64,000 nucleotides of DNA from a virus (IMGVR_UViG_3300025467_000526:1-64000); one strand, 5' to 3'. Shown: positions 6,253 through 35,784, numbered from the stretch's first letter. The notes: a model not told the origin generated them from the letters alone. Program-made: numbers and translations.

Positions 6253-6261
6253 GAAATATTT

Positions 6262-7707
6262 ATGTATGCACTTAATAAGGTTAAATATTTCATGGATAAA
6301 ATATTTTGGTTACAGCCGGAGGATTCTCAGTTAGGCAAGTGGCAACGTCAATTGGAAGACGTTTCAAAAAGTCATAGTTTTTGTGTACTGCCCTGGATAC
6401 ATTTGGCAACTCGTCCGAATGGCGATATGCGTATATGCTGTGTTGCAAACGCATCGGGTGCGGATACAGGCGACTATACTGTTGGCTTAGTTAAGATGGA
6501 AGATGGCAAGCCTGCTAACTTTGCACACAATTTGCCAACTGAAGCGTTCAATAACGACTATATGAAATCAGTGCGTAAGACTATGTTGGAAGGAAAAATT
6601 CCCGCAAGTTGTACCAAATGTTTTAAAGAAGAACAACAAGGTATTGCCAGTAAACGTATTTGGGAAACAGGTACATGGTTTAAAGAAGGTATAGATATCC
6701 CAGAACTTATTGCTCAAACTAAAGAGGATGGATCAGTTCCTTATAAATTACAATACTTAGATTTAAGATTGGGACATACTTGTAACTTAAAGTGTGTCAT
6801 GTGTAGTCCACACGATAGTAGTATGTGGGTACCCGAACATAAAAAAGTATTTCCAATTTTTGCCAGCCCCTTAATTAAAAAACAAATGAGTTGGGAGCAA
6901 ACAGAGTTTAACAACACATGGCATGAAAATCCCAAGTTCTGGGAAGAAGTCTACGATCAAATTCCTAACATCAAACAACTGTACTTTGCCGGGGGAGAAC
7001 CATTACTCATTAAAGAGCATCGCAGATTCTTAGAAGAGATTGTTGCTAGGGGATATGCCAATAAAATTATCTTACGATACAACACAAACGGCACCCTCAT
7101 TAATCAAGATATTATCAACCTGTGGAGTAAGTTCCTTAAAGTTAAAGTTGGATTTAGTTTGGATGGTATGGAAACTCGTGGGCATTATATTCGCTACCCG
7201 TTAGACTGGGATACCATTGTGCAAAATTTGCACACACTAGATAATGCTCCAGATAACATACAAACTAACATTGCACTTGCAGTACAGATACTAAACATCA
7301 AACACGTTCCTGATTTTATTAAATGGAAAGTTAAGAGTAACTTCAAAAAGATTAACATGGATACTAATGCGTCCGGACAAGTTATGGGAGGCGGACTAGT
7401 AGGTGTACACTTGTTATGGATTCCTACATGGTTAAGTCTGCGTGTACTTCCTAAAGAAGACAAAGCAGAAGTGCGTCAACTATTTGCAGATTTACAAGAA
7501 TGGTTATGGAAGAACTATACACAGGACAAAGAATTTTGGGAAACTAATCCTTACGGATGGAAACGTTGGGAAGGTATATTAGATTGGATGGACGCAGAGG
7601 ATCATACTAACTTGCTTCCTGACTTTAAAGAATATATAATGACTATGGATCAGCAACGTGCTACTGATTTTAAAAAGACATTTCCAGAGCTAGCTCACTT
7701 AATATGA
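6262..7707 (+). CDS. radical SAM enzyme, paralog family B
   Basis: CNLKCVMC, FAGGEPL, and N-terminal CVLPWIHLATRPNGDMRICC. The start may instead be ATG 6292, because only 9 nt separate it from the divergent gene. Confidence 0.7.
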   Translation: MYALNKVKYFMDKIFWLQPEDSQLGKWQRQLEDVSKSHSFCVLPWIHLATRPNGDMRICCVANASGADTGDYTVGLVKMEDGKPANFAHNLPTEAFNNDYMKSVRKTMLEGKIPASCTKCFKEEQQGIASKRIWETGTWFKEGIDIPELIAQTKEDGSVPYKLQYLDLRLGHTCNLKCVMCSPHDSSMWVPEHKKVFPIFASPLIKKQMSWEQTEFNNTWHENPKFWEEVYDQIPNIKQLYFAGGEPLLIKEHRRFLEEIVARGYANKIILRYNTNGTLINQDIINLWSKFLKVKVGFSLDGMETRGHYIRYPLDWDTIVQNLHTLDNAPDNIQTNIALAVQILNIKHVPDFIKWKVKSNFKKINMDTNASGQVMGGGLVGVHLLWIPTWLSLRVLPKEDKAEVRQLFADLQEWLWKNYTQDKEFWETNPYGWKRWEGILDWMDAEDHTNLLPDFKEYIMTMDQQRATDFKKTFPELAHLI

Positions 7708-8375
7708 TTACTAAATTAACATGGACATGCCCAGATGGGCTTATTGAACAAGCATTAAAAGAATGTCCAGTGACAGGCGAAGGCACAGTACTAAACGAGC
7801 CAACAGGCGATTTCTTTTATGACGGTTGGAAAATCAAAGATCATTATAAAGACACTCCGTGGAAACAAGTATTAGATACATTACCTGTGACCATAGGCCA
7901 AGCACGTATTATTAAATTAGAACCTGGAGATACATATCAAGCACATGCGGATATCGACAATCGTTGGCATTTAAATTTAACCGGCGAGCAGTCATACCTT
8001 ATTGACTTAGATAAGAAAGTTATGCACGAATGTGTTAGAGATAACTGTTGGGCTTATATGGATGCAAGTTGTAGACACGTTGCTTCTAATTTTGGAGCTA
8101 GATCTCGTTTACAACTTGTAGTAAGAGAACCATTACGACGTAGTAGCCAACCTGTAGATTTAGTTTCCGTAATGATTGGACCAGCCTATGAACAACATCA
8201 GTTTAGATACAAATTTGATAACTTGGTTAGTCCTTTCTTAAATCATGCTGATAAAAATTATAAATTAGCAGATTTTGCTCATACTACATTTAGTTTGACG
8301 TTTAAATTAGAAAGAGAACTGCTTGATGAACTTAAACAGCTTCTTACCGCAGATTACAAATTAACTATTCTTTGA
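7704..8375 (+). CDS. hypothetical protein
   Basis: 223-aa ORF with an ATGA stop/start overlap with the upstream gene. No recognisable motif. Confidence 0.5.
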   Translation: MITKLTWTCPDGLIEQALKECPVTGEGTVLNEPTGDFFYDGWKIKDHYKDTPWKQVLDTLPVTIGQARIIKLEPGDTYQAHADIDNRWHLNLTGEQSYLIDLDKKVMHECVRDNCWAYMDASCRHVASNFGARSRLQLVVREPLRRSSQPVDLVSVMIGPAYEQHQFRYKFDNLVSPFLNHADKNYKLADFAHTTFSLTFKLERELLDELKQLLTADYKLTIL

Positions 8376-9374: not shown

Positions 9375-10599
9375 TCCAGTCTCCTGCTTGATGCCAGCTT
9401 GGCACATTCAACTCCGATAAAGGAATTAGTTGCATACCTTGTTTAAAATTAGGAGCAAACGCAAATCCAGTTGCGGCTCTATCACAAAAGCAAACGTATG
9501 CGTTTGGTATATGGTTATTAATCTTTTCAAGGATTTGATTTTCTTTGTATAGTCTATACGTAAGAGGAGCAAACGCCATAGTGCCTTCATAGCAAAATAT
9601 ATTTGATAAATTTATCATTGTAGTTTGATTAGGATCTAAAAAACTTATATCAACAGTTTGTCCAAGTAAATCTAGTAATATAAATTCGTATGTAATATTA
9701 GGACGTTGTATTGAATGTTCTTTCCAATAGTCTAATGCACGTTGATTATAATCGTACAAAAATACTTTAACAGGATCTGTCATATGTAAATGATCAATCC
9801 ACCATGTACCGCTAGCGGGTGTAAACAACTGAGTTATTGTTCCTTTTAATTCCAGAGATTCTTCTGGAATAAATTCATTGCTACTGGTATGCACAAAGGT
9901 ACTAGAACAATAGTGTTGTCTATAGTATAACCATTCAGATTCTTTTAAAAAATCTTTGTAGCTTTCTGGATAATAATGTTTTTTATTTTTTCGAATTTCA
10001 TTATTAAACACAAGGATAGGAATGTTGTTTTCAAGTGCAACTGAAATTATATGCCATCCATGTGCTTTATGATTATATTGCGATTCGGTATTTCCTGCGT
10101 TTATCCAAGTTGGTGTGTAATCATCGTGTATGTTTTGAAGGCTACGTACAGGTTTCACTTGTATATGTTTACTACCAAGTTCTTGTTGTCCAACAGCTGG
10201 ACATCCTAATCTTTTGTAGACATCTAAATTAATAATGTAGCATTGATGATGCAGTTCATAATATGCATCTCCTCTATCCAATACATGCCCGGCAACTATA
10301 AATTCTGTTTTAACTAGTTCCTTAACATTATCAAAAAAACTTTCGCCGTTAATAAACTCTGTACCTGGCGAATACACAACGGCATATTTGTATCTAGATT
10401 GTACAGCATAATTTATTATTTCATCTTCATAATGGGATACTAGTACATCGAACCCTTTAGTTGTTATATTGCTTATAGTGTAATCTGCAATATTTTTAAT
10501 AACTTCTCTAATTGATAATGGATGATAGGTGTGGATGTTATCTACACAACAAAACACTATTTCATTATTATGTTTAGATTTAAATTTAGTTACGCTCAT
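9367..10599 (-). CDS. hypothetical protein
   Basis: 410-aa ORF in an operon-like overlap chain. No motif recognised. Confidence 0.5.
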   Translation of the reverse strand: MSVTKFKSKHNNEIVFCCVDNIHTYHPLSIREVIKNIADYTISNITTKGFDVLVSHYEDEIINYAVQSRYKYAVVYSPGTEFINGESFFDNVKELVKTEFIVAGHVLDRGDAYYELHHQCYIINLDVYKRLGCPAVGQQELGSKHIQVKPVRSLQNIHDDYTPTWINAGNTESQYNHKAHGWHIISVALENNIPILVFNNEIRKNKKHYYPESYKDFLKESEWLYYRQHYCSSTFVHTSSNEFIPEESLELKGTITQLFTPASGTWWIDHLHMTDPVKVFLYDYNQRALDYWKEHSIQRPNITYEFILLDLLGQTVDISFLDPNQTTMINLSNIFCYEGTMAFAPLTYRLYKENQILEKINNHIPNAYVCFCDRAATGFAFAPNFKQGMQLIPLSELNVPSWHQAGDWIV

Positions 10600-11296
10600 A
10601 ACTTCTTACTAGTAATTCGCAAAACTCCTGTCTACGACTTCCTGTAATTCCATGTATAATTAAATGTGTTCTTGGAGTAGAACTATTGTTGATAACAGAA
10701 TGATAGTTGCTAATATTAACTAAAATAATTTTTCCTTCTTTCCAAGGAACTGTACCTTTATCTTTTAACGTCATATAACATTCTGCTGGATGTATAATAG
10801 CAATGTTTATAGGTAACAATATTTCCAACGGATCAAATGAAGAAGGCATACTGGTCAAATCAAAATCACAATGCGGAGCAATATTCCCTCCTGCACTAAC
10901 TTCCATGAAGCGTACACGAGCTAATTTTTCAAAAGGAAATTTTTCACAAAACTCTTTTATACTAGGAGTTAACGGACTAATACTAGTCCACTGGTATTCT
11001 TCCTTATCAACATAGTGATCCCATGTTTTTGTTTTATCAACGTCTATTCCATGTATACAACAACTACGCCATCCATTATGTGATTCTAAATCTGTATCTC
11101 TGTGCGGAACTAGGTACTGAGAACAAGACTGTGCTTCTTTTTGCCACTCGGTAATATCAAATGTTAAATCTAATTCTATCCATGCAGAATTTAATAAGAT
11201 CCATTGTGCTTGTTGATCAATAGTCAAACCATTAGGAATAGGTTGTTTGATCCAAGTTGCATCTTTATTATATTTGTAAAAATTTTGTGCGTTCAT
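10586..11296 (-). CDS. hypothetical protein
   Basis: 236-aa ORF whose stop overlaps the upstream gene start (ATGA). Confidence 0.45.
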   Translation of the reverse strand: MNAQNFYKYNKDATWIKQPIPNGLTIDQQAQWILLNSAWIELDLTFDITEWQKEAQSCSQYLVPHRDTDLESHNGWRSCCIHGIDVDKTKTWDHYVDKEEYQWTSISPLTPSIKEFCEKFPFEKLARVRFMEVSAGGNIAPHCDFDLTSMPSSFDPLEILLPINIAIIHPAECYMTLKDKGTVPWKEGKIILVNISNYHSVINNSSTPRTHLIIHGITGSRRQEFCELLVRSYERN

Positions 11297-12528
11297 AGGA
11301 AATCGAATAGTTTTTTATATTCTGTTTTTCTAGTAGTATCATATAGCTCTAACACTCGTGTACGTTCAGCAACCACCGCATCGAAATCTTCTGCTTGGGC
11401 AAATAAAAACTTATCTATATTTTGCAAGTAGTTGACTACATTACTATTTTCTTTAAATATTTTGTAATCAAGTTGTAACATTGTTTTTACACGGCTGACA
11501 ATTTGTTCTTTTAACTCTACTGGCAAATATGCTATAGAAAAATAAACTGGGTCTGCAACAAAATTAAAACTGATAGGCAATTTATCTTTCAAATGAGCAT
11601 AGCGTTCAAATTCTGCCATAATTGTTTCTATATCAAAAATATTAAAAATACTAAATGTTACTGAAATTTCAGTTTTAATAATATTGTTCTTTAATAAAGT
11701 TTCAAAGTTGTGTTTAAACTCGTAGAACTTTGCAGGGAATCTGATATAGTGAAATTTATCCGAATCCACGTGATCAAAACTGCAAGTAAGATATACTGAT
11801 TTAAATTGTTCTAATCTATCTATGAGTCCTTGCTCTACGCTAGATAAGTTTGTAATGATTTCAAGTTCAACTGATTTAGAATATCCTCGTTCGACTAGCT
11901 TATCTATAATCTCAAATGTAACAGGATTAATCAAAGGCTCTCCGCCCACTAATCTAATTTTATCTAAGTTTTTGAGAATAGGTTCTAAATTTTTAAAGAT
12001 TATATCGCAATTATCTTTATCAAATCTGTACTGTTGTTTTTCGTTTTTAAATTCTACTTCAATCCATTCTAGCATACTGGGTAGTTGTATATCGTTGGCC
12101 TGCCATAGTTTTATTTCTGTTTCGTGCATTGAACTAGATAACTGACAACACATGATGCATTTTAAATTACACAGATTACCTAACTTAAAATCAAACAACT
12201 TGGGAGGCAATGAATAGCTTCCATCATCTGACATATGAGCAACCATGCCGTCTATGTTTACATTCCTATTTTCATTCTTACGCATCGAATATCCATTGTC
12301 TTTTTCCATGCGCCAGCAAGAATCACAATTAGGATTTTTAACACCGTTGACTAAGTCTAATCTTAATTGTTTATAGTAGTCGCTATTCCAAACAACATCT
12401 GCCGAGTCCGTTTGAATATTTGGGCCAAAACCAAAACTATCACAGCACACTCGGTAATCTCCACTGTTTGTATTGCTCATCATAGTAAACGGCAGTACAC
12501 AAATTGTATCTTTAGAATATATCATCAA
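11293..12528 (-). CDS. radical SAM enzyme, paralog family B
   Basis: CNLKCIMC, VGGEPL, and N-terminal CVLPFTMMSNTNSGDYRVCC. Confidence 0.7.
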   Translation of the reverse strand: MMIYSKDTICVLPFTMMSNTNSGDYRVCCDSFGFGPNIQTDSADVVWNSDYYKQLRLDLVNGVKNPNCDSCWRMEKDNGYSMRKNENRNVNIDGMVAHMSDDGSYSLPPKLFDFKLGNLCNLKCIMCCQLSSSMHETEIKLWQANDIQLPSMLEWIEVEFKNEKQQYRFDKDNCDIIFKNLEPILKNLDKIRLVGGEPLINPVTFEIIDKLVERGYSKSVELEIITNLSSVEQGLIDRLEQFKSVYLTCSFDHVDSDKFHYIRFPAKFYEFKHNFETLLKNNIIKTEISVTFSIFNIFDIETIMAEFERYAHLKDKLPISFNFVADPVYFSIAYLPVELKEQIVSRVKTMLQLDYKIFKENSNVVNYLQNIDKFLFAQAEDFDAVVAERTRVLELYDTTRKTEYKKLFDFL

Positions 12529-12568
12529 CTATTTATAGTGGGTGTTAACTGCCCGATAAATATTGCCT

Positions 12569-13213
12569 ATGTGGACACATTACTATAAACTAGACGAATT
12601 TGGAAAACCCTGCCATGCTCAAATGAGTTACGAACCTTTGATTAATAAAGAACGTAACGTATTCTGCATGAATTTTGATCCTAATAATTCTTATCAAGAC
12701 TACATAAACAAAGTCGGGTTTATTCCAGAAATAGTTCATGAGCTATTTGATCGTGAAGTTAAGTATCTTACCAAGTTTCAAAAATACAGTTGGGCTCCTG
12801 AAGTATTAGATATAGAAGGTAACAAAATATACATTCGCTGGTATGACAACACATGTAATGATATAATTAATACTGGCAATACATTACCGCCTAATTGGAA
12901 AGATCAGCTAACACATATCATACATGATCAGTTAGATGAACATGTTTATAAAATAACACAATACCCACATTGCTTTTATGTAGACAACACCAGCACATTA
13001 CACACATTTGATTTGCATGCCTGTTTTGATTTTGACGACTATATGATGCCCTGGAGCAAACTTAAAGGCGTAATACACGGAAGTAGCGAAGGAAGAATTG
13101 CAGAAGTACAGTCTGAGGATATGGTTAATATGCGAGATATGTTTTTAAATAGTTTACGTACACATATCAAATGGCCTGATAATTACCTAAATGAAATTTA
13201 TAAATTATTATGA
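12569..13213 (+). CDS. hypothetical protein
   Basis: ORF track starts at TTG 12563. ATG 12569 is the more likely start. Confidence 0.45.
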   Translation: MWTHYYKLDEFGKPCHAQMSYEPLINKERNVFCMNFDPNNSYQDYINKVGFIPEIVHELFDREVKYLTKFQKYSWAPEVLDIEGNKIYIRWYDNTCNDIINTGNTLPPNWKDQLTHIIHDQLDEHVYKITQYPHCFYVDNTSTLHTFDLHACFDFDDYMMPWSKLKGVIHGSSEGRIAEVQSEDMVNMRDMFLNSLRTHIKWPDNYLNEIYKLL

Positions 13214-13725
13214 TTAAATGGAAACCAATCGTCGATACGCTATTACTGCTTGACGGTGAGCATGTGTCCTTAAAACATACCAACAACATACCTGTTGGCA
13301 ATCCGCATTTTGTCGAAATTATGAAACAATTAGAATCTGCCAAATATGATTTTAGTTCTGTAGATTGGATCGATTATTATCCTAGTGTACATTTCGATAA
13401 CACCTGTGTCGATGAATTTAGTAAATTAGTAGACCATAAAATATGTAGAGCTTGGATTAGTCGTGTCGACCCAGGAAAAAATGCACCTTGGCATTGGGAT
13501 GTAGACGACCAAGAAACAGAGTTTTTAAAATTAGGTAAGTTAAAGAGATGGACTTGTTTTATAACTGAACCCAAAGTTGGGCATAGTTTAATTATTGGCA
13601 ATAAAGGATTTTACAATGAACCTGCTGGCACTATATATGAATGGCCTAATTACAGAGAATGGCATTGTGCCGCTAACTGTGGTATGGAGCCACAATTCTT
13701 ATTTCATTTTTTAGGATTTAAATAA
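13210..13725 (+). CDS. hypothetical protein
   Basis: 171-aa ORF with an ATGA overlap with the upstream gene. Confidence 0.45.
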   Translation: MIKWKPIVDTLLLLDGEHVSLKHTNNIPVGNPHFVEIMKQLESAKYDFSSVDWIDYYPSVHFDNTCVDEFSKLVDHKICRAWISRVDPGKNAPWHWDVDDQETEFLKLGKLKRWTCFITEPKVGHSLIIGNKGFYNEPAGTIYEWPNYREWHCAANCGMEPQFLFHFLGFK

Positions 13726-14567
13726 TCCTGTGGTATATAGTTAAAAGAAGATCTATGTAACAGACGTTTGTCTATACTTTGAAATTCTAAACGTCTGTGA
13801 ATTCCAAACACCATATCTGCAAGAACAATATCGCCATCTTGCCAATCATGCGAGTAAATATATTTGTCTTGTGTAATATGTTTTGCAAGTTTGTCAATGA
13901 TAGGTTGGCTTTGTTCTTCAGTCATGCCTTTAAAATAAAACATTTGCAAATACGGAAAGAATATTCCTTTCCTACCTTGACGGTTTTCTCTTATAATACT
14001 AGGAGTGTATTCTTCGTTTATAAACTTACCAGGCATGTGTTCTAACGCAGGAGATAATCTTTCAGCGTCGTGACCAAACACTCCTTGTAAATCTTTAATT
14101 TCATCAAATAATTCTGGAGTCAAATCATCGTATGCTAGGAAGTTATTTGTCCATTGTGTTATAGAACCCGTAGTACCTTCTATCCCTCTCAAGTACACAA
14201 TTAACTTACTTGCAGGACTTGCCGGGCCATTACAATGCCATTTTAATTCCGCCGGGTGCCCAAAGATTCCAGTCTTGCCATCTTTAACTATACGTCCGGT
14301 CACAGGAATTAATTTGCATTCACTATCAGGAATCACACACTTACCAATGGTTTCTGATTCGGGTGGTTTATCGTATGTTTCCACTTCGTGAAACAAGTTA
14401 ATAAACTTTAGTTCATCTTTCATTGTAATGTTAGTTCTAGGGATCACTACCAGGGTGTTAGAATCAAGTAGTCGACAAATTTCATTTGCATCTTCTTGAG
14501 TTGGATTTATAAGATCAATTTCGTCAACTATTACAGTCCACCCATTTTCGTGTATATGATATTTCAT
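13704..14567 (-). CDS. TauD/TfdA-family Fe(II)/2-oxoglutarate dioxygenase-like protein
   Basis: C-terminal YSHDWQDGDIVLADMVFGIHRR resembles the TauD signature (W.xGD…WDNR…HR). Length 287 aa, similar to TauD. Confidence 0.5.
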   Translation of the reverse strand: MKYHIHENGWTVIVDEIDLINPTQEDANEICRLLDSNTLVVIPRTNITMKDELKFINLFHEVETYDKPPESETIGKCVIPDSECKLIPVTGRIVKDGKTGIFGHPAELKWHCNGPASPASKLIVYLRGIEGTTGSITQWTNNFLAYDDLTPELFDEIKDLQGVFGHDAERLSPALEHMPGKFINEEYTPSIIRENRQGRKGIFFPYLQMFYFKGMTEEQSQPIIDKLAKHITQDKYIYSHDWQDGDIVLADMVFGIHRRLEFQSIDKRLLHRSSFNYIPQDYLNPKK

Positions 14568-15370
14568 TAATAATTTTCCAAGTTGTCAATGCCTAACTTT
14601 TTACGAAACTCTTCCGTAAACTTACCGTCAATTCGTAAACCATAGCTTTGTCGCATAATACGATCACCGCCGTGCCAATCTTGATCATTCCACCATGCGG
14701 CACGACAATTGATATAATGTTTGTTTTTAGTTTCTGGATCCCATAGATAAAAAGGTCTTTCTAAATTAGGACGAATATGAATAAACTCGTTGCGATGTGG
14801 ACTATAACCTTTTGGTCCTTGTTCTCCGCTCAAATCTCTATGTTCCCAACTGATACCGTCGGCATCGCATACAAAAAATATTACACGGCCGATATGTTCA
14901 AAGATACCGTTGGTAATAGTTTGCTCTACCCATTTAACTACATTAGGGAAATACTTTGCTTCTTCTGTTAGTTTACGCGGTGCAGTCCTGTCATCCCAGG
15001 AACCTTCTTCCCACAAAAAATAGTAAGTGTAAGGATCGTATGCACCCATGGCAATTTTAAGATAACGAGTAAAGATGTTTCTTTGCTTGTATTTCTTAAA
15101 GTCTTTATAATATTCCATTCCTTTTAGTTTGATAGGATTATCATCTGGTAACGATAAAAATTCTTCCATAGCTTTGTAAATTGGTTTCCAATGCATGATA
15201 TAACTCATGTCTGCAATATCAAAGCCTGGTTTCATCCAAGTGCCTTCTTTAGCAAACTCCATTGCGTCGGCAAAGCCTTCGTGTATTTCTTGTTGTAGTG
15301 CGTCAAACCCTTGCATGTCTAAATGTGGCGACATATCAAAATAAGGAATATTATTAATGCCTTTAATCAT
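14567..15370 (-). CDS. hypothetical protein, paralog of 15367..16164; possible cupin/2OG-oxygenase fold
   Basis: Shares N-terminal GIN..P..DMS..LD, central YYFLWEEGSWDD and C-terminal blocks with the neighbouring gene. Carries HRD…H…RxS-like residues (WEHRD, DWHGGDRIMRQS). Confidence 0.4.
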   Translation of the reverse strand: MIKGINNIPYFDMSPHLDMQGFDALQQEIHEGFADAMEFAKEGTWMKPGFDIADMSYIMHWKPIYKAMEEFLSLPDDNPIKLKGMEYYKDFKKYKQRNIFTRYLKIAMGAYDPYTYYFLWEEGSWDDRTAPRKLTEEAKYFPNVVKWVEQTITNGIFEHIGRVIFFVCDADGISWEHRDLSGEQGPKGYSPHRNEFIHIRPNLERPFYLWDPETKNKHYINCRAAWWNDQDWHGGDRIMRQSYGLRIDGKFTEEFRKKLGIDNLENY

Positions 15371-16164
15371 AAATTTAATTCCTTTTTCATAGCATCTGTA
15401 AAATATCCGTCAACACGTAGTGACCAAGCGGGTGCAATATGTCTAACTGCCGAATGCCATTCTTTTGCATTAAACCAGCATGCCCATGAATTAGCAAAAT
15501 ACTTGTCTTTGTTATCAGCATCGAATACATAGAAAGGTCTACTAGTGTCAGAACGTAAATGTATAAAATGAGGTAATTGATCAATATCATCATGCACCTT
15601 ATCTAACGGCAACCGCAAGTCACTGTCTGGTGCTAGGTCATAATGTTCTACAGTTCTTCCATCATGCTCAACGTAAAATATACATACCCGGAATATACTA
15701 TCAAACATTGTTCCAATTAAAGAATTTGCCCATGCCATCACTGAAGGAAACTTTTCTGCAAGCTCGGGTAGTTTAGCATCGGGCATAGTTGTGCCGCCAA
15801 AGTTTTCATTTGTAGTTAAGTAAAAAACACGAAGTGGATCATACACTCCGTATTTTGATTTAAAAAATCTAATTAGTTTATTTCTAGAAGTTACGTTATC
15901 TAGATTATTGTGCCACTGCTTTGCTTTAGAGTCATCTGTAATATCTGGATCTTTCAAGAAATCCTTTAATCCGTCCGGAATAGTTTTCCAGTCTTGCGGA
16001 TTAGTTGAGTTAGGATGATTTTCAATATCAATCCATATACCTTCAAATGCATCTAACTTGGTTTCTGCAAGCCCAGCTATAATTTCAGGTTCAAGTTTTT
16101 GAAACGCTTCTCTATCTAAGAAACGACTCATGTCTACTATTGGCTGACCGTTAATCCCTCGCAT
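15367..16164 (-). CDS. hypothetical protein, paralog of 14567..15370
   Basis: Start trimmed to the internal Met (MRGINGQPIVDMSRFLD) that aligns with the paralog N-terminus (MIKGINNIPYFDMSPHLD). The ORF track extends to 16221. Confidence 0.4.
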   Translation of the reverse strand: MRGINGQPIVDMSRFLDREAFQKLEPEIIAGLAETKLDAFEGIWIDIENHPNSTNPQDWKTIPDGLKDFLKDPDITDDSKAKQWHNNLDNVTSRNKLIRFFKSKYGVYDPLRVFYLTTNENFGGTTMPDAKLPELAEKFPSVMAWANSLIGTMFDSIFRVCIFYVEHDGRTVEHYDLAPDSDLRLPLDKVHDDIDQLPHFIHLRSDTSRPFYVFDADNKDKYFANSWACWFNAKEWHSAVRHIAPAWSLRVDGYFTDAMKKELNL

Positions 16165-16846
16165 ATATTTGTTTTGCCTTTTTAATAAAATCTTCTGGAT
16201 ACATATTACTAAAACAATCAAATGTAAGTTGTTGTATTACGTTTAACGGATATTTTGTATTCCAATCTAAATTAATAGAATCTGTATATTTTTTTAACTG
16301 TTCTTGTCTTTGTAAACTAATGTGACTTTGTACACTTGCAATGGATAAATCGGGTTCATTGCTACTGTAAGTAAAAAAATAGTTGATGCTTTTTAGTTTG
16401 CCATCTACAATAAAATAACTGCTTGGGTGCATACTGTACTTGTACCAGCCTCTGTCTTTGTGTGCTTGGATAATGGCTAGCATTTGATCCTGCCAGTCTG
16501 GTAGTATTTCATTAAACGAACAATTACGGTCTAAACTTTGTTGCCAAAAATCAACACCACCAATTTCTAAATAAATTTTACGTTCTGGAACATTTACTTC
16601 TTTAATTGCTGGAACCATGTCTGGATTATGCCAAGCCATGTTGCTAATGAAGTGCAATTCTCGATTCCATTTTTCATCCATTAGTTCTTGGTCAATTACT
16701 TGATTCTTACCCTGGTGATATTCGGAATCATTATGATACCACATACAAAATGTTTTACTATCACTACTAATTAAACTAGTATAGATTAAGTTATTTCTAC
16801 AAGGTTCTTCACCTGGTACGCGATTGTAATAGTATTCAAACTGCAT
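16151..16846 (-). CDS. hypothetical protein
   Basis: 231-aa ORF, first gene of the minus-strand run. Confidence 0.45.
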   Translation of the reverse strand: MQFEYYYNRVPGEEPCRNNLIYTSLISSDSKTFCMWYHNDSEYHQGKNQVIDQELMDEKWNRELHFISNMAWHNPDMVPAIKEVNVPERKIYLEIGGVDFWQQSLDRNCSFNEILPDWQDQMLAIIQAHKDRGWYKYSMHPSSYFIVDGKLKSINYFFTYSSNEPDLSIASVQSHISLQRQEQLKKYTDSINLDWNTKYPLNVIQQLTFDCFSNMYPEDFIKKAKQIYARD

Positions 16847-16907
16847 AAAATCTCCCTATAGCTCTATTTATTTTCTGCCCTTAACTCTACAACATAAATA
16901 TTGTACT

Positions 16908-17984
16908 ATGAAAATTACAAAAATACCCGGCTTAGGAAGATTCGGAATCTTTATCGATGATGTAGACTTTACTACAATGTCAGATGACCAGTGGTTAGAA
17001 ATCGGACAACTGCATTTACAAAACTTAGTTACAATCATACGAGACTGTAACATGCCTTGGGAAACTCAACCAGACTGGTGTGAAAAGTTTGGTCCCAGAC
17101 GCAGTGGAGTACGCTACCATATGGAAAAGAAGTATGGTCAACAATGGAATTGGTTATTCAAAGAAGCACAAGCAAATAATCCTATTATTAGTGAATTGGA
17201 TCGAGAACGTATACAAGCTATTGCCAAAGTACAGTATCAAACTCCAGGCGGAAAAAGTTTCATGAAAGTGAGTGGAGCCAAGGATGAACACGGTAATGCA
17301 CTTGGGATGTTTGCAGAAGGCGAATTACTATGGCATAGTAACGAATCGGGTACGCTGACATTTACTCCGGGCGTTGCATTGTTGGGTGTGCAGAACATGA
17401 TAGGATCTGCTACAGGATTTATCACAACTACTGATTATTATGAAAATGTAAGCAATGCATTTCGTAGCGAATTAGATGAAATGATACTGTTACATAGATT
17501 TATCCCGGGTGCTATTAATCCAGGTCTACGTGCAGATCAAGATGAAATCATGCATGCCAATATGTGTCCAGAAGACGATACCGAAATACCAATGACCATT
17601 TTAAGTCCAGGTGGTATCAAAGGACTGCATTATAGTATTAATACTGCTTATAGTATTAAGGGCATGAGCAAAGAATCCAGCGATGAAATATTTGCTATGA
17701 TTAACAAAGAATTATTTGTAGACAAATACATCTATGATCACTGGTATCAAAGTGATCACGACTTGTGTTTGTTTGACAACAGTATTACATTACACAGAAG
17801 ATTAGGCGATATCAAAGAACGTGTGTGCCATCGTGTCCCACATGACTACACTAAATTACATAGCAACTTTTGGCAGCCTTATAGCCAACCAGATGTTGCT
17901 GATCAATTCGAAAAAGAAATTCTTTACTATGTTGATTTATGCAAGGTTAGAGGATACAGAATGCCTGACGGAAGTTTGTCTTGA
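16908..17984 (+). CDS. TauD/TfdA-like dioxygenase-fold protein
   Basis: C-terminal HWYQSDHDLCLFDNSITLHRR matches the pattern of the TauD C-terminal motif. An earlier LWHSNES lies where HxD would be. The metal ligands are not fully canonical. Confidence 0.45.
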   Translation: MKITKIPGLGRFGIFIDDVDFTTMSDDQWLEIGQLHLQNLVTIIRDCNMPWETQPDWCEKFGPRRSGVRYHMEKKYGQQWNWLFKEAQANNPIISELDRERIQAIAKVQYQTPGGKSFMKVSGAKDEHGNALGMFAEGELLWHSNESGTLTFTPGVALLGVQNMIGSATGFITTTDYYENVSNAFRSELDEMILLHRFIPGAINPGLRADQDEIMHANMCPEDDTEIPMTILSPGGIKGLHYSINTAYSIKGMSKESSDEIFAMINKELFVDKYIYDHWYQSDHDLCLFDNSITLHRRLGDIKERVCHRVPHDYTKLHSNFWQPYSQPDVADQFEKEILYYVDLCKVRGYRMPDGSLS

Positions 17985-18592
17985 ATCCGTATGCCGTTGA
18001 AAATACATACCACGTAATTTATCACGAAACATGTGATGAGTTCGAACGTGTACGCAGTATCTGTTTAGAAGAGAATAATTGGTTACAGAAAAATTATACT
18101 CAAGAAAAATTAGTTATAGAAGATCATAGTGGTTATGTTGTAGTATATCAGAAAGAAACTAACAAACCTATTATCATGGCAGGTGCATATAATGGCATGT
18201 TTCCTTCTAACGTAGCTCGATTAGCCAACAGATTATATTTGTTTCCAGAATTTCGTTGCGGTAGACACAACATGATAGAATCTTACAAACTTCATCATGA
18301 ACGTATAGTTAAGCCTTTAATGGCTATTAACGATTACAATCTGTATGTTATCACTATGCAAAATCGTACTCGTGGAAACAAGGGGTGGTGGAGTCGTTGG
18401 AAAAAAATGATGCAAGAATCCAGCAATAATATGTGGACTGAAGCAGATGGCTATTTGCAAACATGTCCATGGCTTGTTCAAAAGTGTTGTCAAAATTTTG
18501 TTTATACAGAATTAAAAAAAGGTACATTTAAAGAATGGAACCCAAAAATTATAACCGAGGCGGAATGGCAAGTATTGCCTGAAGGTACATGA
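17981..18592 (+). CDS. hypothetical protein (probable TTG start)
   Basis: 203-aa ORF. The first in-frame ATG is far downstream, so TTG 17981, overlapping the upstream stop, is the likely start. Confidence 0.4.
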   Translation: MNPYAVENTYHVIYHETCDEFERVRSICLEENNWLQKNYTQEKLVIEDHSGYVVVYQKETNKPIIMAGAYNGMFPSNVARLANRLYLFPEFRCGRHNMIESYKLHHERIVKPLMAINDYNLYVITMQNRTRGNKGWWSRWKKMMQESSNNMWTEADGYLQTCPWLVQKCCQNFVYTELKKGTFKEWNPKIITEAEWQVLPEGT

Positions 18593-19323
18593 CATTAAAC
18601 AAAAAGTTACGAACCTTACAATTTTTAAATCTTTTCTTATCTATCGTAGGATTGTGTTATTATGGGTTTGATTACTTGTTGTTGAGTTATCTAGTTTTTG
18701 TTTTGTTATGCCCTATTGGAATTAGTGCAGGGTTACATAGATACTTTACACACAAGTCTTATAAAACATCTAAGTTCTGGGAAAGAACTATGTTGCTGTT
18801 AAGTGTATATGCTACTGTAGGTAGCAGTATAGCTTGGGTCGGTGTTCACAGAGCACATCATACATTTACCGACAAACCCTACGACCCGCATAGTCCAGCT
18901 GATGGAGTATTCAAAGCATGGACTGGTATAGGGCATACTGAAACTAAGATCCCAGTTAGTTTTGTAAAAGATCTATTAAGAGATCCGTTACATAGATTTA
19001 TACACGATAATTATTTTAAAATTTTATTGATTCCAGTAATTGCATTATTTCTGTATAGTCCAATGCTCGGAGTTTTTTTATATGCTATACCTGCAACTCT
19101 GGCGCTACAAACAACTAGCATAGTTAATGTACTAGGACACACACAAGGATATCGCAGTTACAATACTGACGATTGCAGTAGCAATAGTTGGATTGCTAAC
19201 ATTCTTAGTTTAGGAGAAGGATGGCATAATAACCATCATCATTATCCCAGCAATTTTAGTTTAACAGAACGTTGGTGGGAATGGGATTTAATTGGCGAAT
19301 TTATAGAGGCAATTCGCCTATAA
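18589..19323 (+). CDS. membrane fatty-acid (acyl-lipid/acyl-CoA delta9-type) desaturase-like protein
   Basis: Three His boxes match the stearoyl-CoA/DesC-type desaturase pattern: HRYFTH, HRAHHTF…DPHSP, and GEGWHNNHHHYP. The N-terminus is hydrophobic. Confidence 0.6.
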   Translation: MTLNKKLRTLQFLNLFLSIVGLCYYGFDYLLLSYLVFVLLCPIGISAGLHRYFTHKSYKTSKFWERTMLLLSVYATVGSSIAWVGVHRAHHTFTDKPYDPHSPADGVFKAWTGIGHTETKIPVSFVKDLLRDPLHRFIHDNYFKILLIPVIALFLYSPMLGVFLYAIPATLALQTTSIVNVLGHTQGYRSYNTDDCSSNSWIANILSLGEGWHNNHHHYPSNFSLTERWWEWDLIGEFIEAIRL

Positions 19324-19897
19324 TCATATAGCGGGTATACATCTGTGTTTCTAACTCACCGGACCATATGACATCAAGTTTACTTTGTTCTTCAAAATGT
19401 TGTAAACTAGTAGAAGTTCTAATGTGTTCTGGTAACTCATAATTGTTGCCTTGCAACACAATCAAACTATCTTTTCTAAGACCCGACAACCATAGCTCGT
19501 AATCTTCTTGAGTGATATGTTCACAGCTAGTATTAATAACAACATCAGCCTCGCTAGGCACGTTTATCATATTAGCATGGATGAATTCAAACCTGCCCTG
19601 TATATGTTCAATCTTGTTCATCATCTCGGATATAGATTTACAGTTTATATCTAAATCTATATTGTTAATTTTTTCAACAGTCATTCCACTTTGAAATATC
19701 ATACTGGCTAGAGTACCTACCCACCCTGCGTATATGTCAATATTAACAGGCTGATCAATTTCTAATTTCAAATGTTCTATCAGCCATTCTTTACTTTTAA
19801 TTTGTCCGCGCCAAAACGCTTCTAAAGTTTGACTTGGATTGTCGCTATCTCTTATAGCACACATCCAATAATGTAAATGTTCTGTATCAATTAGCAT
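19301..19897 (-). CDS. hypothetical protein, possible SAM-dependent methyltransferase fold
   Basis: NIDIYAGWVGTLA is a weak glycine-rich motif-I-like segment, followed by an acidic DVVIN. The assignment is weak. Confidence 0.3.
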   Translation of the reverse strand: MLIDTEHLHYWMCAIRDSDNPSQTLEAFWRGQIKSKEWLIEHLKLEIDQPVNIDIYAGWVGTLASMIFQSGMTVEKINNIDLDINCKSISEMMNKIEHIQGRFEFIHANMINVPSEADVVINTSCEHITQEDYELWLSGLRKDSLIVLQGNNYELPEHIRTSTSLQHFEEQSKLDVIWSGELETQMYTRYMIIGELPL

Positions 19898-20903
19898 TAA
19901 ACTGTGTTCCTAACTTGTCGAACTTGCCGCATTGTTTGGCACATTCATAAACTGGGTCGTTAGCCCAGGTGTTTTCAATACGATTAAAATAACCCGAATT
20001 GAAAATGTCCTCTAAAGATTGTTCATGTAGATTAGGAAACTCTCCAATCTTGTCCATATAATCGATACGAGTATATTGTTTATGTAATTTTTCTTTAAAG
20101 TCCATCCAGCAACACGGACCGACATTACCAGACGCCGCAACATAAATTTGTTTGTATTTGACTGCCTTGCAAGTAATAACACAAGAACTTTTGTCTACCA
20201 CTTGATCCATAGGCATATCTTTTGCATACTTTAAAACTTCTGGAAGTATTTCTTCAGTTTTGGTACTTGGCAATAAATGATACAATGTCTTGCCTGAATC
20301 ATCTAATACTGGAAATTTAATATCAGTAAATCGAGTTGTGTGTTTTACTTGGAATAAATTAAATCCTAACTGGGCAGACAGACGGCGACATGCTTCTACT
20401 TGATGCTCATTGTGTTTGAACACCAGCATGTGCCAATCTGCATGGCCACCTGCTTGTATGAATGCAGTTGCATTTTTTATAATTCTGTTCCAATCTGTGT
20501 CTATTCTATAAAGAGAATGAGTGTCTTCTAATCCGTCAATACCAAATACTACTCTAATATCTAATTTAGCTAACTCTGCCCACCATTGAGTACTTCTAGC
20601 ACTGCCGTTTGTATGCATACTCAAACGTATATTAGGATTAGTTGTTCTGAGGTACTGAAAGATTGCCAAACAATCTTCTGCAATGATAGGATCACCCAAG
20701 TTGCCGCACATGAATAAACTATCTAGTTGACAGATAAAATCTTTACTGAACCATTTTTTAAATGTATCTAAATCTATTTCCACTAATGTCATGAGCGGAT
20801 TCAATGTGCCGCCGTTGATACGCCTTGGGCACATAGGGCAACGTGCTTGACATTTAGTAGTTACTTCTAAGTGTATATCTCGTATGTCTGTTAGTTTATA
20901 CAT
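19887..20903 (-). CDS. radical SAM enzyme, paralog family C (SPASM/twitch-like)
   Basis: CQARCPMC, GNLGDP, and C-terminal C…CCWMDF…C…CAKQC. Confidence 0.65.
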   Translation of the reverse strand: MYKLTDIRDIHLEVTTKCQARCPMCPRRINGGTLNPLMTLVEIDLDTFKKWFSKDFICQLDSLFMCGNLGDPIIAEDCLAIFQYLRTTNPNIRLSMHTNGSARSTQWWAELAKLDIRVVFGIDGLEDTHSLYRIDTDWNRIIKNATAFIQAGGHADWHMLVFKHNEHQVEACRRLSAQLGFNLFQVKHTTRFTDIKFPVLDDSGKTLYHLLPSTKTEEILPEVLKYAKDMPMDQVVDKSSCVITCKAVKYKQIYVAASGNVGPCCWMDFKEKLHKQYTRIDYMDKIGEFPNLHEQSLEDIFNSGYFNRIENTWANDPVYECAKQCGKFDKLGTQFNAN

Positions 20904-21885: not shown

Positions 21886-21998
21886 CAGACGTGAGTGTAA
21901 CTGGTAAACCTCCTCCTAGTAAGCTGACCCCCAGCTGAACGGAGGGCAAGGGTCTAGCTCTTAGAGCGACTTTGGAAGTTCGAATCTTCCCGTCTGTA
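21886..21998 (+). tRNA. tRNA-like RNA gene (113 nt, atypically long; identity undetermined)
   Basis: The 3' end is canonical: T-arm GGAAG-TTCGAAT-CTTCC, then acceptor strand CGTCTGT, discriminator A and encoded CCA. The only 5' partner is GCAGACG at 21886-21892 (7 bp including one G-U). A long variable-arm-like hairpin GCTC-TTA-GAGC is present. The D-arm folds poorly. A CCTCC/GGAGG helix encloses an extra AGCTG-ACCCC-CAGCT hairpin. This could be a type-II tRNA with an insertion or intron, or a tRNA-like element. Confidence 0.45.
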
Positions 21999-22028
21999 CC
22001 ATTGTTAACTAATAGAAAGAAGTTTAAA

Positions 22029-22750: not shown

Positions 22751-22764
22751 GAGTAAATAATACT

Positions 22765-22935
22765 ATGACACATTGGACTGTAACTTTAGAAGAAACAGAT
22801 GATGGAAGTGGGGATTTAATTTTGCCATTTCCTGAAGATTTTTTAAAGGCCGTTGGATGGCAAGAAGGAGATACACTTGAGTGGAAAGATAATGGAGACG
22901 GATCCTGGATCCTTGAAAAAGTAAAAGATGAGTAA
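22765..22935 (+). CDS. small hypothetical protein
   Basis: ATG 22765 (MTHWTVTLEETDDG…) is preferred over the upstream TTG 22747 used by the ORF track. Confidence 0.4.
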   Translation: MTHWTVTLEETDDGSGDLILPFPEDFLKAVGWQEGDTLEWKDNGDGSWILEKVKDE

Positions 22936-32833: not shown

Positions 32834-32841
32834 TATAAATA
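32834..32841 (+). promoter_or_regulatory. T4-type late promoter motif TATAAATA
   Basis: Exact TATAAATA 20 nt upstream of ATG 32862. Confidence 0.3.
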
Positions 32842-34956: not shown

Positions 34957-35203
34957 CATGAATCGTTTTACAAAAATTTCGTGTGCTCTATTAGCCGTAG
35001 TAGTGGCAATTATATGTTGGCCTGAACCAGGTGAGGATGTCATTACTCGAAAATTCTGTGCGTACGGCGAAACTTATGTTGAATTTGAACACGGCGGTAA
35101 AATTTGGGGTACTACATTTTTAAATGAAAATGGTAAACCTCTTAGTTGTACAGAAGATGAAATTAAGGCGGAACCAGTAAATTCATGGAAGAGCACTATT
35201 TAA
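34943..35203 (+). CDS. small secreted/membrane-anchored protein
   Basis: Hydrophobic N-terminus FTKISCALLAVVVAIICWP. Confidence 0.4.
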   Translation: MKKFNMNRFTKISCALLAVVVAIICWPEPGEDVITRKFCAYGETYVEFEHGGKIWGTTFLNENGKPLSCTEDEIKAEPVNSWKSTI

Positions 35204-35784
35204 ATTCCCAAAACAATTTTATCATGGGGTGGTATACTGACCTAACAGTATGCGATCGTCTTATAGAGTTACATAAAACAAGTTCAAATTTAAGTCCAGG
35301 ATTGTACGGTGCAAACAAAGAAGTTGACAAGTCTAAAAAAGATTCAATCGATTTAATGTTGCCGCCGGGGCAAGTTCCGTATTATTATTTGAAGCATTTA
35401 TTCAAATGTTTGAACGCATACTATCAAAAATATCCTCATTCTAAAATCGATGCGGTTGACATGATAGAGTCAACACAAGTACAATATTATGCTCCAGGCG
35501 GCGGTTTTAAAGCATGGCATTTAGAACGAGAAGGATTAGATTGGCCTATTGTAACAAGACATTTAGTCTTTATGACTTATTTGAATACAGTAGATGATGG
35601 AGGCGGTACAGAATTTTTGTATCAAGGAATGAAAATTAAGGCTGAAAAAGGATTAACACTTATTTGGCCACCTGATTGGACTTTTACTCACAGAGGTGAA
35701 ACTAGTCCTACACAAGAAAAATATATTATAACTGGATGGTTTAACATGAAAACTTATACTTTAGAAAGGAATAGAAATGCGTAA
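35185..35784 (+). CDS. 2OG-Fe(II) oxygenase, prolyl-4-hydroxylase-like
   Basis: WHLEREG (HxE/D), TYLNTVDDGGGTEF, and distal H…R in TFTHRGETSP…ITGWF. Confidence 0.6.
   Translation: MEEHYLNSQNNFIMGWYTDLTVCDRLIELHKTSSNLSPGLYGANKEVDKSKKDSIDLMLPPGQVPYYYLKHLFKCLNAYYQKYPHSKIDAVDMIESTQVQYYAPGGGFKAWHLEREGLDWPIVTRHLVFMTYLNTVDDGGGTEFLYQGMKIKAEKGLTLIWPPDWTFTHRGETSPTQEKYIITGWFNMKTYTLERNRNA

Follow-up and report, generated by a model that had tools for sequence, protein, structure and literature searches.

Protein or peptide modification is the best-known role of the AspH-, P4H-, kinase-like and SPASM/twitch radical-SAM families; the substrates of LpxO and OlsC are lipids, lipid A and ornithine lipids respectively. 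In the literature, viral tauD genes count as auxiliary metabolic genes (AMGs) of the sulfur cycle. Human AspH is an active Fe/2OG hydroxylase that has no carboxylate ligand, its iron site comprising two His and a water (PMC13168262).

Positions 13,704–17,984 of an uncultured aquatic phage, within a window of 64,000 nucleotides (the whole stretch of DNA that was analysed), hold a genuine cluster of Fe/2OG oxygenase-type genes. The four open reading frames that the first-pass annotation had placed there (A, B, C and E; Table 1) are all present, and identical contigs from metagenomes, for which genes had been called independently, show the same boundaries, including those of the 265-residue C. 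A fifth gene within the interval, D, was absent from that annotation. The interval comprises two divergent operons, one on the minus strand (D-C-B-A) and one on the plus strand (E, 17981 and a desaturase-like gene); in both, the ends of neighbouring genes overlap by 1–14 nt, and translation is therefore probably coupled. The phage is large, tailed and uncultured, and its affiliation is uncertain; one virion protein is 42–46% identical to Synechococcus phage proteins, and the DNA ligase is closest to those of SPO1-like phages.

Of the at least 4–5 oxygenases proposed for the phage in the first-pass annotation, the P4H-type gene is confirmed by Pfam. The total was too low, since two Asp_Arg_Hydrox genes and a cupin raise it to approximately eight oxygenase/cupin genes; the window also encodes nine radical-SAM genes, and every enzyme type is present in two to four paralogs. 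One uncharacterised gene lies between the P4H-type gene and the radical-SAM gene listed in Table 1.

Table 1 Coordinates and assignments of the genes and control elements discussed
Feature	Coordinates	Strand	Assignment	Details
A	13704..14567	-	TauD/TfdA superfamily, 287 aa	final gene of operon D-C-B-A
B	14567..15370	-	DSBH Fe/2OG-oxygenase-like, virus-only, 267 aa	H177-R-D179, H233, R246
C	15367..16164	-	diverged B paralog, 265 aa	H-Y-D (VEHYD), distal His (EWHS), Arg (SLRVDG)
D	16151..16846	-	protein-kinase-like fold (predicted), 231 aa	opens operon D-C-B-A; paralog of 12563-13213
Divergent control region	16847..16907		61 bp	two ATAAATA elements
ATAAATA, D side	16865-16871	-		18 nt upstream of D start
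ATAAATA, E side	16894-16900	+		7 nt upstream of E start
E	16908..17984	+	TauD/TfdA superfamily, 358 aa	opens operon E / 17981-18592 / 18589-19323
FA-desaturase-like gene	18589-19323	+		third gene of E operon, after 17981-18592
D paralog	12563-13213	+	kinase-like half of second kinase-like plus cupin module	outside the interval
Small cupin	13210-13725	+	HxD...H	H95, D97, H152; 4-nt overlap with 12563-13213
AspH/LpxO-type oxygenase-like	7704..8375	+	H-A-D...H	Pfam Asp_Arg_Hydrox E-value 5.2e-5, 23.6 bits against cutoff 22.6
AspH/LpxO-type oxygenase-like	10586..11296	-	H-C-D...H	Pfam Asp_Arg_Hydrox E-value 5.7e-13
P4H-type 2OG-Fe(II) oxygenase	35185..35784	+		Pfam 2OG-FeII_Oxy_3 E-value 1.7e-7, 32.5 bits against cutoff 27
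N-terminal-twitch radical-SAM gene	36595-37971			NCBIfam N_Twi_rSAM E-value 1e-99

TauD-like proteins with an HxN motif

The profile scores of A and E with Pfam TauD (PF02668) are 83.7 bits (E-value 2.7e-23) and 54.2 bits (E-value 2.5e-14), respectively, against a cutoff of 27, and the terminal blocks that had been read as TauD-type are present (DWQDGD...GIHRR in A and HWYQSD...TLHRR in E). The two proteins are similar to each other (E-value 8e-15), and the best PDB sequence matches of A are RdpA and TfdA. The Pfam matches, the similarity of A to E, that of B to C and the match of the P4H-type gene all lie well outside what chance would give.

The metal motif of both proteins is non-canonical. 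In A it is composed of H111-C-N113 (HxN), with the distal His H257, the 2OG-binding R268 and the substrate-anion R272; the corresponding residues of E are H143-S-N145, H296, R305 and R309. In profile alignments, N113 of A falls on D101 of TauD and on the Asp of TfdA, and further residues of A fall on TauD H99, T126, H255 and R266 and on their TfdA equivalents. Loss of the 2-His-1-carboxylate triad had been named beforehand as grounds for refuting the assignment, and in both TauD-like proteins the triad fails at the carboxylate, which is replaced by Asn; both His are kept. The 2OG-binding Thr/Arg and the substrate-anion Arg (R-x-x-H/Y-R) are intact in A and E, with S135, T137, R268 and R272 matching TauD, and W110, H111, S135, T137, H257, R268 and R272 (A numbering) are invariant among 19 diverged phage sequences.

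Because HxN is shared by 71 of 78 homologs from phages and 40 of 43 from databases, and is likewise found in the cultured phage P-HM1, it is, as a sequence feature, a signature of the clade and not an error. All 42 E-type phage homologs carry it; across 121 sequences, Asp or Glu at the Asn position is rare, and Ala or Gly never occurs there. Judged from these alignments, the carboxylate-free 2-His-1-Asn site in a TauD scaffold adds a new variant of the active site to a superfamily already known. With both Fe-binding His, the 2OG-binding Thr/Arg and the anionic-substrate Arg kept, and Asn at the position of the Asp ligand, A and E would, by analogy with human AspH, work as oxygenases with a site of two His (plus Asn or water), and would not be taurine dioxygenases; Asn at the ligand position could also mean that activity is lost or changed. 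A conserved natural HxN in an otherwise intact TauD scaffold represents an unusual first coordination sphere, and the clade provides a ready-made test of the role of the third ligand in Fe/2OG chemistry.

A virus-restricted oxygenase family and its kinase-like partner

B and C are paralogs, as had been proposed (32% identity, BLASTP E-value 2e-43), and contain the motifs quoted for them, WEHRD and DWHGGDRIMRQS in B and TVEHYD in C. Aligned with the B family, C retains the HxD...H...R motif (HYD, H, R). Among 60 diverse members of the B/C family, H177 is present in 59 and D179 in 54 (with one E and four H), and H233 is present in 57 and R246 in 56 (with three K); the positions of the conserved residues are compatible with strands II, VII and VIII in the predicted barrel. 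Of the checks named in the first-pass annotation, those on fold and triad favour the assignment of B and C: a DSBH fold is predicted, and HxD...H...R, a putative metal site, is kept across the family.

No Pfam profile, including Asp_Arg_Hydrox (PF05118), matches B or C above threshold, and only one of the 60 family members has a weak match to Asp_Arg_Hydrox (E-value 8.9e-4); an hhalign probability of 75.8% between B/C and Asp_Arg_Hydrox suggests remote homology. The family profile has no match among PDB sequences. Homologs of B/C (957) and of D (2769) are abundant, essentially virus-restricted and missed by Pfam, and neither B nor D is found in any of 50,697 deposited phage genomes. B/C are a new family, absent from domain databases, inside a known oxygenase superfamily. 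From their predicted fold and conserved residues, they would be Fe(II)/2OG hydroxylase-type enzymes, distant kin of the AspH/LpxO type. In B, Fe(II) would be bound by H177, D179 and H233, and the C5-carboxylate of 2OG by R246; O2-driven decarboxylation of 2OG would lead to a ferryl species and to oxidation of a C–H bond. A second B-like copy is uncommon among related loci. Nothing points to a free amino acid as the substrate of B.

D is predicted to adopt a bilobal protein-kinase-like fold and is similar to its paralog 12563-13213 (E-value 1e-10). The families of the two proteins contain no nearly invariant Asp, and the residues conserved in at least 90% of members are N19, Y22, Y43, R62, E63, P79, P116, W118, Q121, K136, P141 and P217. 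With residue roles in D assigned by eye from predicted secondary structure, members of the D subfamily have Asn (N155) as the DFG-equivalent residue, and those of the 12563 subfamily Asp. D does not fit an active protein kinase, for which a conserved beta3 Lys, catalytic-loop Asp and Asn, and DFG Asp would be expected as a set. The linkage sample comprised 79 other viral loci carrying a B orthologue; 76 of these also encode a D-family protein, its gene being at most 1.5 kb away in 54. D is the conserved partner of B, and is probably an ATP-using or substrate-binding accessory subunit.

The families of the D paralog and the adjacent small cupin adjoin in 30 distinct contexts. In the cupin family H95, D97, R113, H152 and N156 are invariant, and its best PDB match is a beta-hydroxylase (7v4f, E-value 0.0034), with the motifs aligned.

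Gene modules, expression and target class

In the same sample, a radical-SAM gene is present in 70 of the 79 loci and another DSBH/cupin gene in 71. The earlier suggestion that the oxygenases act in the same pathway as the radical-SAM enzymes is not borne out in the form given; the association, with both in 70 loci, is only correlative, and the genes are shuffled between loci in modules of two or three. The 10586-11296 family adjoins the 9367-10599 family in 30 contexts, the desaturase and 17981 pair lies beside D-B in approximately 15 loci, and TauD-like genes of the A type adjoin desaturase-like genes in jumbo contigs (L090-L100). TauD-like genes are found in tandem, with up to three diverged copies in an array, and also share operons with genes of the kinase-like and AspH-like types. 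B/C, D and the radical-SAM paralogs make up a recurrent shuffled island, present in at least 115 viral contigs. PADLOC defence-system models match none of 10 island proteins.

The element ATAAATA resembles the T4 late promoter, the core of which is TATAAAT (PMC3037559). It is depleted in the window (13 copies observed against 32.8 ± 6 expected), and all 13 copies are positioned 4–30 nt upstream of an ATG, several at just 4–8 nt. Almost all of them head operons, including D-C-B-A, the E operon and the tail-fibre-like genes that adjoin the island. At other loci, ATAAATA lies upstream of only approximately 12% of D/B homologs, against a background of 1.9%. Both this low share and the short spacing of several copies count against the explanation given below.

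The explanation that we favour, with moderate confidence, is one of shuffled, late-expressed hydroxylase modules acting alongside radical-SAM enzymes on a common target class. The oxygenases and radical-SAM enzymes would constitute a paralog-rich toolkit, transcribed along with the virion genes under T4-late-type promoters, that oxidatively tailors this class, most likely protein or peptide, for example virion fibres. Protein or peptide is our guess, to which we lean because of the usual roles of the AspH-, P4H-, kinase-like and radical-SAM families and the tail-fibre-like neighbours. Counting against this explanation, the island has no room for a precursor-peptide ORF, its only gaps longer than 40 bp being of 54, 61 and 115 bp, and the window contains no collagen-like repeats. 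A bolder proposal, possible but doubtful, is that the TauD-like proteins are a widespread natural 2-His-1-Asn class with non-canonical chemistry and, with B/C, the kinase-like partners and the nine radical-SAM enzymes, form a late pathway to a heavily modified product (virion protein, peptide or surface lipid) without cellular counterpart.

The desaturase-like neighbours of the TauD-like genes and the lipid-acting LpxO/OlsC-type kin of AspH favour a lipid target instead. In this case the AspH/LpxO-like proteins (including B/C), the TauD-like proteins and the membrane desaturase-like protein would hydroxylate or desaturate membrane lipids or lipopolysaccharide of the host envelope, with a change of the cell surface late in infection that might, for example, exclude other phages. 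Two genes match Asp_Arg_Hydrox, to which LpxO belongs, and B/C are its distant relatives; E, 17981 and the FA_desaturase gene share a single operon with overlapping ends, both desaturase linkages described above point the same way, and Rio-type small kinase-like folds are similar to lipopolysaccharide core kinases. Host-surface alteration has also been proposed for comparable hypervariable marine myophage islands (PMC7029224). Nevertheless, searches of the island for domains of glycosyltransferases, acyltransferases or lipid-binding proteins detected none, and the sequences of A, B, C and E have no visible predicted membrane segment; we regard envelope remodelling as conceivable and rather unlikely. 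An auxiliary metabolic role, in which A and E are taurine or sulfonate dioxygenases releasing sulfite, or nutrient scavengers, among neighbours that are unrelated cargo, accords with the names given to the family in databases and papers (taurine catabolism dioxygenase or tauD, a viral sulfur AMG) and with the sulfonate-binding Arg of TauD being kept in both proteins (R272 in A, R309 in E). It is quite improbable, however, as the taurine-dioxygenase equivalog (NCBIfam NF007104) scores 31.5 bits with A and 19.9 with E against a cutoff of 313, Asn takes the place of the Asp ligand throughout the clade, the closest solved relatives are phenoxyalkanoate dioxygenases rather than TauD, and tandem arrays and mixed operons are unexpected for a single catabolic step. 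Given a clade without the canonical iron ligand and scores this far below threshold, the sulfur-AMG reading of such genes needs revisiting.

The absence of the carboxylate from most homologs, with the remaining site invariant, also raises the possibility that A and E are not hydroxylases, and either bind an anion at the freed site (a halogenase-like transfer, in chloride- or bromide-rich water) or are non-catalytic binders of 2OG or metal. Fe/2OG halogenases use a bound anion as third ligand in place of Asp/Glu, and a D144G change has been described (10.1101/2024.09.19.613983). Asn, however, is as bulky as Asp, and its amide oxygen can ligate iron; known halogenases have Ala or Gly, which makes room for the halide. 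The few clade members that retain HxD or HxE suggest that either residue permits the same chemistry, and the strictly conserved His and 2OG-binding residues argue against a pseudoenzyme, which leaves this alternative unlikely. Manipulation of 2OG or nitrogen status, in which many 2OG-consuming enzymes mainly draw down or sense host 2-oxoglutarate, has been proposed for cyanomyoviruses with several 2OG-Fe(II) oxygenase genes (PMC3037559), and this window has approximately eight. For this phage it is very improbable: the conserved substrate-side residues of at least three distinct families, the obligate kinase-like partner, the co-occurrence with radical-SAM genes and the late-type promoters would all go unexplained, and the host need not be a cyanobacterium. 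For the late-expressed toolkit that we favour, the identity of the target would reveal the use of approximately 17 redox-tailoring enzymes late in infection by a large aquatic phage.

Comparison with known oxygenases and phage islands

B and C remain below any Pfam threshold for the AspH/LpxO type (PF05118), to which they add a helical N-terminal half of approximately 150 residues; they retain HxD, whereas human AspH has only the two His. L-proline cis-4-hydroxylase (4p7x) and proline 3-hydroxylase (1e5r) have a sequence identity of just 10–13% to B. Compared with Rio/Bud32-type small kinases and pseudokinases, D has neither a conserved catalytic-loop Asp nor a Pfam match.

A and E have the fold, the domain and the His, Thr and Arg residues of the TauD/TfdA family (E. 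coli TauD, TfdA, RdpA/SdpA and AtsK), the Asp of HxD being replaced by Asn throughout their phage clade, and E differs further in an insert of approximately 70 residues and a C-terminal extension. The Fe(II)/2OG halogenases (SyrB2, WelO5 and BesD/HalA) likewise naturally lack the carboxylate ligand in an otherwise intact site; they belong to other subfamilies and have Ala or Gly at the ligand position, rather than the Asn of A and E.

At the level of the locus, there is a likeness to the hypervariable islands termed host recognition clusters in marine T4-like phages (pelagimyophages and cyanomyophages). Here too, a large variable island lies beside tail-fibre genes and a giant VrlC-like gene; no glycosyltransferases were found in this phage, and radical-SAM cassettes and Asp/Asn beta-hydroxylase genes are common to those islands and this window (PMC7029224). 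E is an orthologue of the taurine catabolism dioxygenase of cyanophages P-HM1, P-HM2 and MED4-213 (PHROG 24590, T4-GC447; E-value 6.8e-102 with the PHROG). PHM1_004 of P-HM1 is 45% identical to E, and the WHSNES and HRR motifs are common to both. In P-HM1, however, the gene stands alone among replication genes, whereas here E opens an operon within an oxygenase/radical-SAM island.

Composition of the oxygenase cluster and the B/C family

The interval 13704-17984 contains five ORFs, whose boundaries are the same in independent gene calls on identical metagenome contigs; JGI 3300025411 and ENA ERZ27271940 are examples of samples in which the contig occurs. The first-pass annotation had described four oxygenase-like genes here, all of which are real and contain the quoted motifs, but it overlooked the fifth, the kinase-like gene D; its observation is confirmed and its interpretation supported in part. 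Genes D, C, B and A overlap successively by 14, 4 and 1 nt and therefore form one operon. Gene E is followed by 17981-18592 and then by an FA_desaturase-like gene (18589-19323), with a 4-nt overlap at each junction. Taken together, the genes add to a known superfamily one new family and one new variant of the active site.

Cluster genes, radical-SAM genes and ATAAATA elements in the window
Feature	Coordinates	Strand	Length	Type
A	13704-14567	-	287 aa	TauD-like
B	14567-15370	-	267 aa	B/C oxygenase family
C	15367-16164	-	265 aa	B/C oxygenase family
D	16151-16846	-	231 aa	kinase-like
E	16908-17984	+	358 aa	TauD-like
Radical-SAM	2249-3352			group 1
Radical-SAM	3266-4156			group 1
Radical-SAM	20891-21856			group 1
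Radical-SAM	4149-5420			group 2, N-terminal twitch, NF033640
Radical-SAM	6262-7707			group 2, N-terminal twitch, NF033640
Radical-SAM	11293-12528			group 2, N-terminal twitch, NF033640
Radical-SAM	36595-37971			group 2, N-terminal twitch, NF033640
Radical-SAM	8361-9407			group 3, SPASM type
Radical-SAM	19887-20903			group 3, SPASM type
ATAAATA	181-187
ATAAATA	6257-6263
ATAAATA	12530-12536
ATAAATA	12556-12562
ATAAATA	16865-16871
ATAAATA	16894-16900
ATAAATA	32835-32841
ATAAATA	39264-39270
ATAAATA	42717-42723
ATAAATA	43641-43647
ATAAATA	44216-44222
ATAAATA	44537-44543
ATAAATA	45684-45690

B and C share 32% identity along their entire length (E 2e-43) and have no match in Pfam, PHROGs, NCBIfam or PADLOC. 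A 60-sequence B-family profile retrieved nothing meaningful from PDB sequences, a Pfam search of 60 members gave one weak AspH match, and the longer relatives of B, including the 539-aa P0170, had no Pfam match; the N-terminus of P0170 was ruled out as a D fusion. The family comprises 957 proteins in a set of 5.8 billion, with no precomputed Pfam domain among those listed, forms 336 clusters among 50%-identity representatives, is carried by 115 IMG/VR contigs and is essentially virus-restricted. Neither B nor D had a tblastn match in 50,697 deposited phage genomes. A search of 185,579 species genomes with B alone found the family on a single 4.5-kb contig (L163, JBDNIA010000100.1), binned into a Crocinitomicaceae (Bacteroidota) MAG, and this homolog, which may point to a host or may have been misbinned, is too weak for host assignment.

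The closest viral structures to B and C are AspH-like proteins. When compared using hhalign with the Pfam-confirmed AspH-like gene of the window (10586-11296), the B family aligned with a probability of 75.8% (E 2.3e-5), with HxD on HxD and distal His on distal His. Among 60 diverse family members, H177 is kept in 59, D179 in 54 (with one Glu and four His), H233 in 57 and R246 in 56 (with three Lys), and C has all four residues. This conservation bears out the earlier guess that B and C are oxygenases; they have a canonical site and appear to form a new and divergent lineage within the AspH-like portion of the superfamily. Other proteins listed for comparison with the family are a nucleoside-antibiotic beta-hydroxylase, proline 3-hydroxylase, PHDs, AlkB homologs and halogenases.

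TauD-like proteins with an HxN motif

A and E, distant paralogs of each other (E 8e-15), both match Pfam TauD (E 2.7e-23 and 2.5e-14, respectively), as had been anticipated. Their closest solved relatives are phenoxyalkanoate dioxygenases, and alignment to TauD, TfdA and RdpA, both pairwise and by profile, matches five active-site residues. The proximal His, 2OG-binding Thr, distal His, 2OG-binding Arg and substrate-anion Arg are invariant in 19 diverged phage TauD-likes. The same alignments place an Asn at the Asp position of the HxD motif ('WHCNG' in A and 'WHSNES' in E); the triad put forward for the cluster thus holds in B and C but not in A and E. A survey of 159 viral loci gave 78 unique TauD-like ORFs, of which 71 have this HxN motif, 4 have HxD and 3 have HxE. 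HxN is present in 42/42 E-type sequences, in 40/43 database homologs of A (31-92% identity) and in the cultured Prochlorococcus phage P-HM1, and is a clade signature. No conserved acidic residue is found at positions neighbouring the Asn, and no description of HxN TauD enzymes was found in the literature. Human AspH is an active Fe/2OG hydroxylase with two His only and water at the third site (PMC13168262), and in Fe/2OG halogenases this site holds a bound anion (10.1101/2024.09.19.613983).

Recurrent arrays of up to three diverged tandem A-type genes occur in some related phages (L065:90-2594, L069:7-3219, L079 and L159), and HxN and HxD copies can be found together within a single array (HxD examples are 932-1762 'HHD' in L065 and 867-1730 'HSD' in L069). 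A-type genes also adjoin fatty-acid-desaturase-like genes in jumbo contigs without the B/D module (L090-L100; IMG/VR, 150-364 kb), a link independent of the island. In nucleotide searches of deposited phages, only the E gene was matched, in P-HM1, P-HM2 and MED4-213 (67% identity), and a search with a 24-kb flank gave no match.

Kinase-like modules and the wider island

D is a paralog of 12563-13213. Its catalytic competence is doubtful because no Asp is conserved across the two subfamilies and the DFG-equivalent residue is Asn in D, as opposed to Asp in the 12563 subfamily. The next gene, 13210-13725, encodes a member of a small family in which H95, D97, R113, H152 and N156 are invariant; in the PDB it is closest to the cupin beta-hydroxylase 7v4f, and the motifs of the two align. 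The window therefore has two modules composed of a kinase-like gene plus an HxD...H oxygenase, with this second module paralleling D with B. Related viral loci, such as L010, L033 and L077, often carry 2-4 copies of the 13210 cupin family in tandem.

Linkage was counted in 79 further viral loci that carry a B orthologue. Of these, 76 also have a D-family gene (within 1.5 kb in 54, of which 39 are divergent and 15 co-directional), 70 have a radical-SAM gene and 71 another DSBH/cupin gene; TauD_A-type and TauD_E-type genes occur in 10 and 9, respectively. Gene order is shuffled across related loci, and several pairs recur: B with D, 12563 with 13210, radical-SAM 3266 with radical-SAM 4149, 17981 with the desaturase-like gene that it accompanies, and 9367 with the AspH-like 10586 family, which it always adjoins. 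The 5404 family is found together with radical-SAM 4149 and 3266, and the 19301 family together with radical-SAM 19887 and 20891. These partner families (9367-10599, 5404-6252, 17981-18592 and 19301-19897) have no detectable domain or PDB relative, and family profiles of 9367-10599 and 17981-18592 had no match in the PDB.

Nine radical-SAM genes, which fall into three paralog groups, were identified with Pfam and NCBIfam, alongside two Asp_Arg_Hydrox genes, a P4H-type gene (35185-35784) and the desaturase-like gene, with each enzyme type in 2-4 diverged copies. The four NF033640-type proteins have a twitch/SPASM-like Cys domain at the N-terminus, and this type matched only the Ralstonia jumbo phage RsoM2USA among the 50,697 deposited genomes. 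The longest ORF of 11293-12528 begins at TTG 12528; an ATAAATA element followed by 'gttgATG' suggests that translation in fact begins one codon further on, at the ATG.

The GC content of the island is 0.32-0.37 (0.32-0.34 in 8001-14000) versus 0.38-0.41 downstream (0.38-0.40 in the flanking phage genes, 24001-42000), which fits a separately evolving, exchangeable region. Searches for defence systems (PADLOC, 10 island proteins), tRNAs and Rfam families gave no match. At the island edge, the 126-aa ORF 21972-22352 has an N-terminus resembling a signal peptide (MKKIVIATLMFISTSVFA) and, near the other end, the HExxH-like C-terminal motif HEMRH, and may encode a secreted metallopeptidase-like protein. 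The small genes 22747-22935 and 22928-23149 have precomputed Pfam assignments, on identical contigs, to MazE_antitoxin (weak) and eIF-1a/IF1-like. Downstream, a single ORF of 4167 aa (46034-58537), preceded by an ATAAATA element, may encode a giant VrlC-like protein of structural type. The affiliation of this uncultured phage appears mixed: Synechococcus myovirus proteins share 42-46% identity with one virion protein, and the DNA ligase is closest to SPO1-like phages.

Probable late expression and candidate targets

ATAAATA, the T4 late promoter core (PMC3037559), is strongly depleted in the window (13 copies versus 32.8 +/- 6 expected), and all 13 copies lie 4-30 nt upstream of an ATG, nearly all heading operons. 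Copies are present at both sides of the 61-bp D/E gap and of the 12529-12562 gap; others precede the tail-fibre-like genes (215 and 39292) and the 5404 operon. For several copies the distance to the ATG is as short as 4-8 nt, and transcripts started from these would have a very short leader or none. From this arrangement we infer that the island is co-expressed late with the virion genes. In other loci, the exact element precedes approximately 12% of D and B homologs versus 1.9% background, so modest an enrichment that the late-promoter reading is firm in this window alone; the closeness of several copies to the start codon limits the support further.

The analysis establishes family and fold assignments, residue conservation and gene linkage; beyond these, we infer a mechanism in which the Fe(II) of B and C would be coordinated by H177, D179 and H233, with R246 binding 2OG, and a ferryl intermediate would serve to hydroxylate a C-H bond. 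In A and E, two His would hold the Fe, the third site would be taken by Asn or water, and a substrate with an anionic group would be held by R272 (A) or R309 (E); D would serve as an accessory subunit.

Modification of proteins and peptides is what the AspH-, P4H-, kinase-like and SPASM/twitch radical-SAM families are chiefly known for. For this reason, and given the adjacent fibre genes and the late-looking promoters, the target that we tentatively favour is a protein or peptide, for example the virion fibres. The island has no intergenic room for a RiPP precursor gene and no collagen-like repeats were found in the window, and both points count genuinely against such a target. Lipid or LPS remodelling of the LpxO/OlsC type also fits, and is favoured by the repeated linkage of TauD-likes to desaturase-like genes.

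Of the readings considered, a taurine AMG agrees least well with what was observed. E matches PHROG 24590, 'taurine catabolism dioxygenase' (E 6.8e-102), and is 45% identical to a P-HM1 protein of that name; a study treating viral tauD as a sulfur AMG gives the conserved residues as 'WH and H' only. Against the NCBIfam taurine-dioxygenase equivalog (cutoff of 313 bits), A and E score 31.5 and 19.9 bits, and neither is a taurine dioxygenase orthologue. A role in DNA hypermodification was rejected because no oxygenase falls by sequence in the nucleic-acid-acting TET/JBP or AlkB groups.

No description of this island was found in the literature. Hypervariable islands with radical-SAM cassettes and Asp/Asn hydroxylases adjoin tail-fibre genes in marine T4-like pelagimyophages and cyanomyophages, and the island of this phage is comparable to them (PMC7029224).
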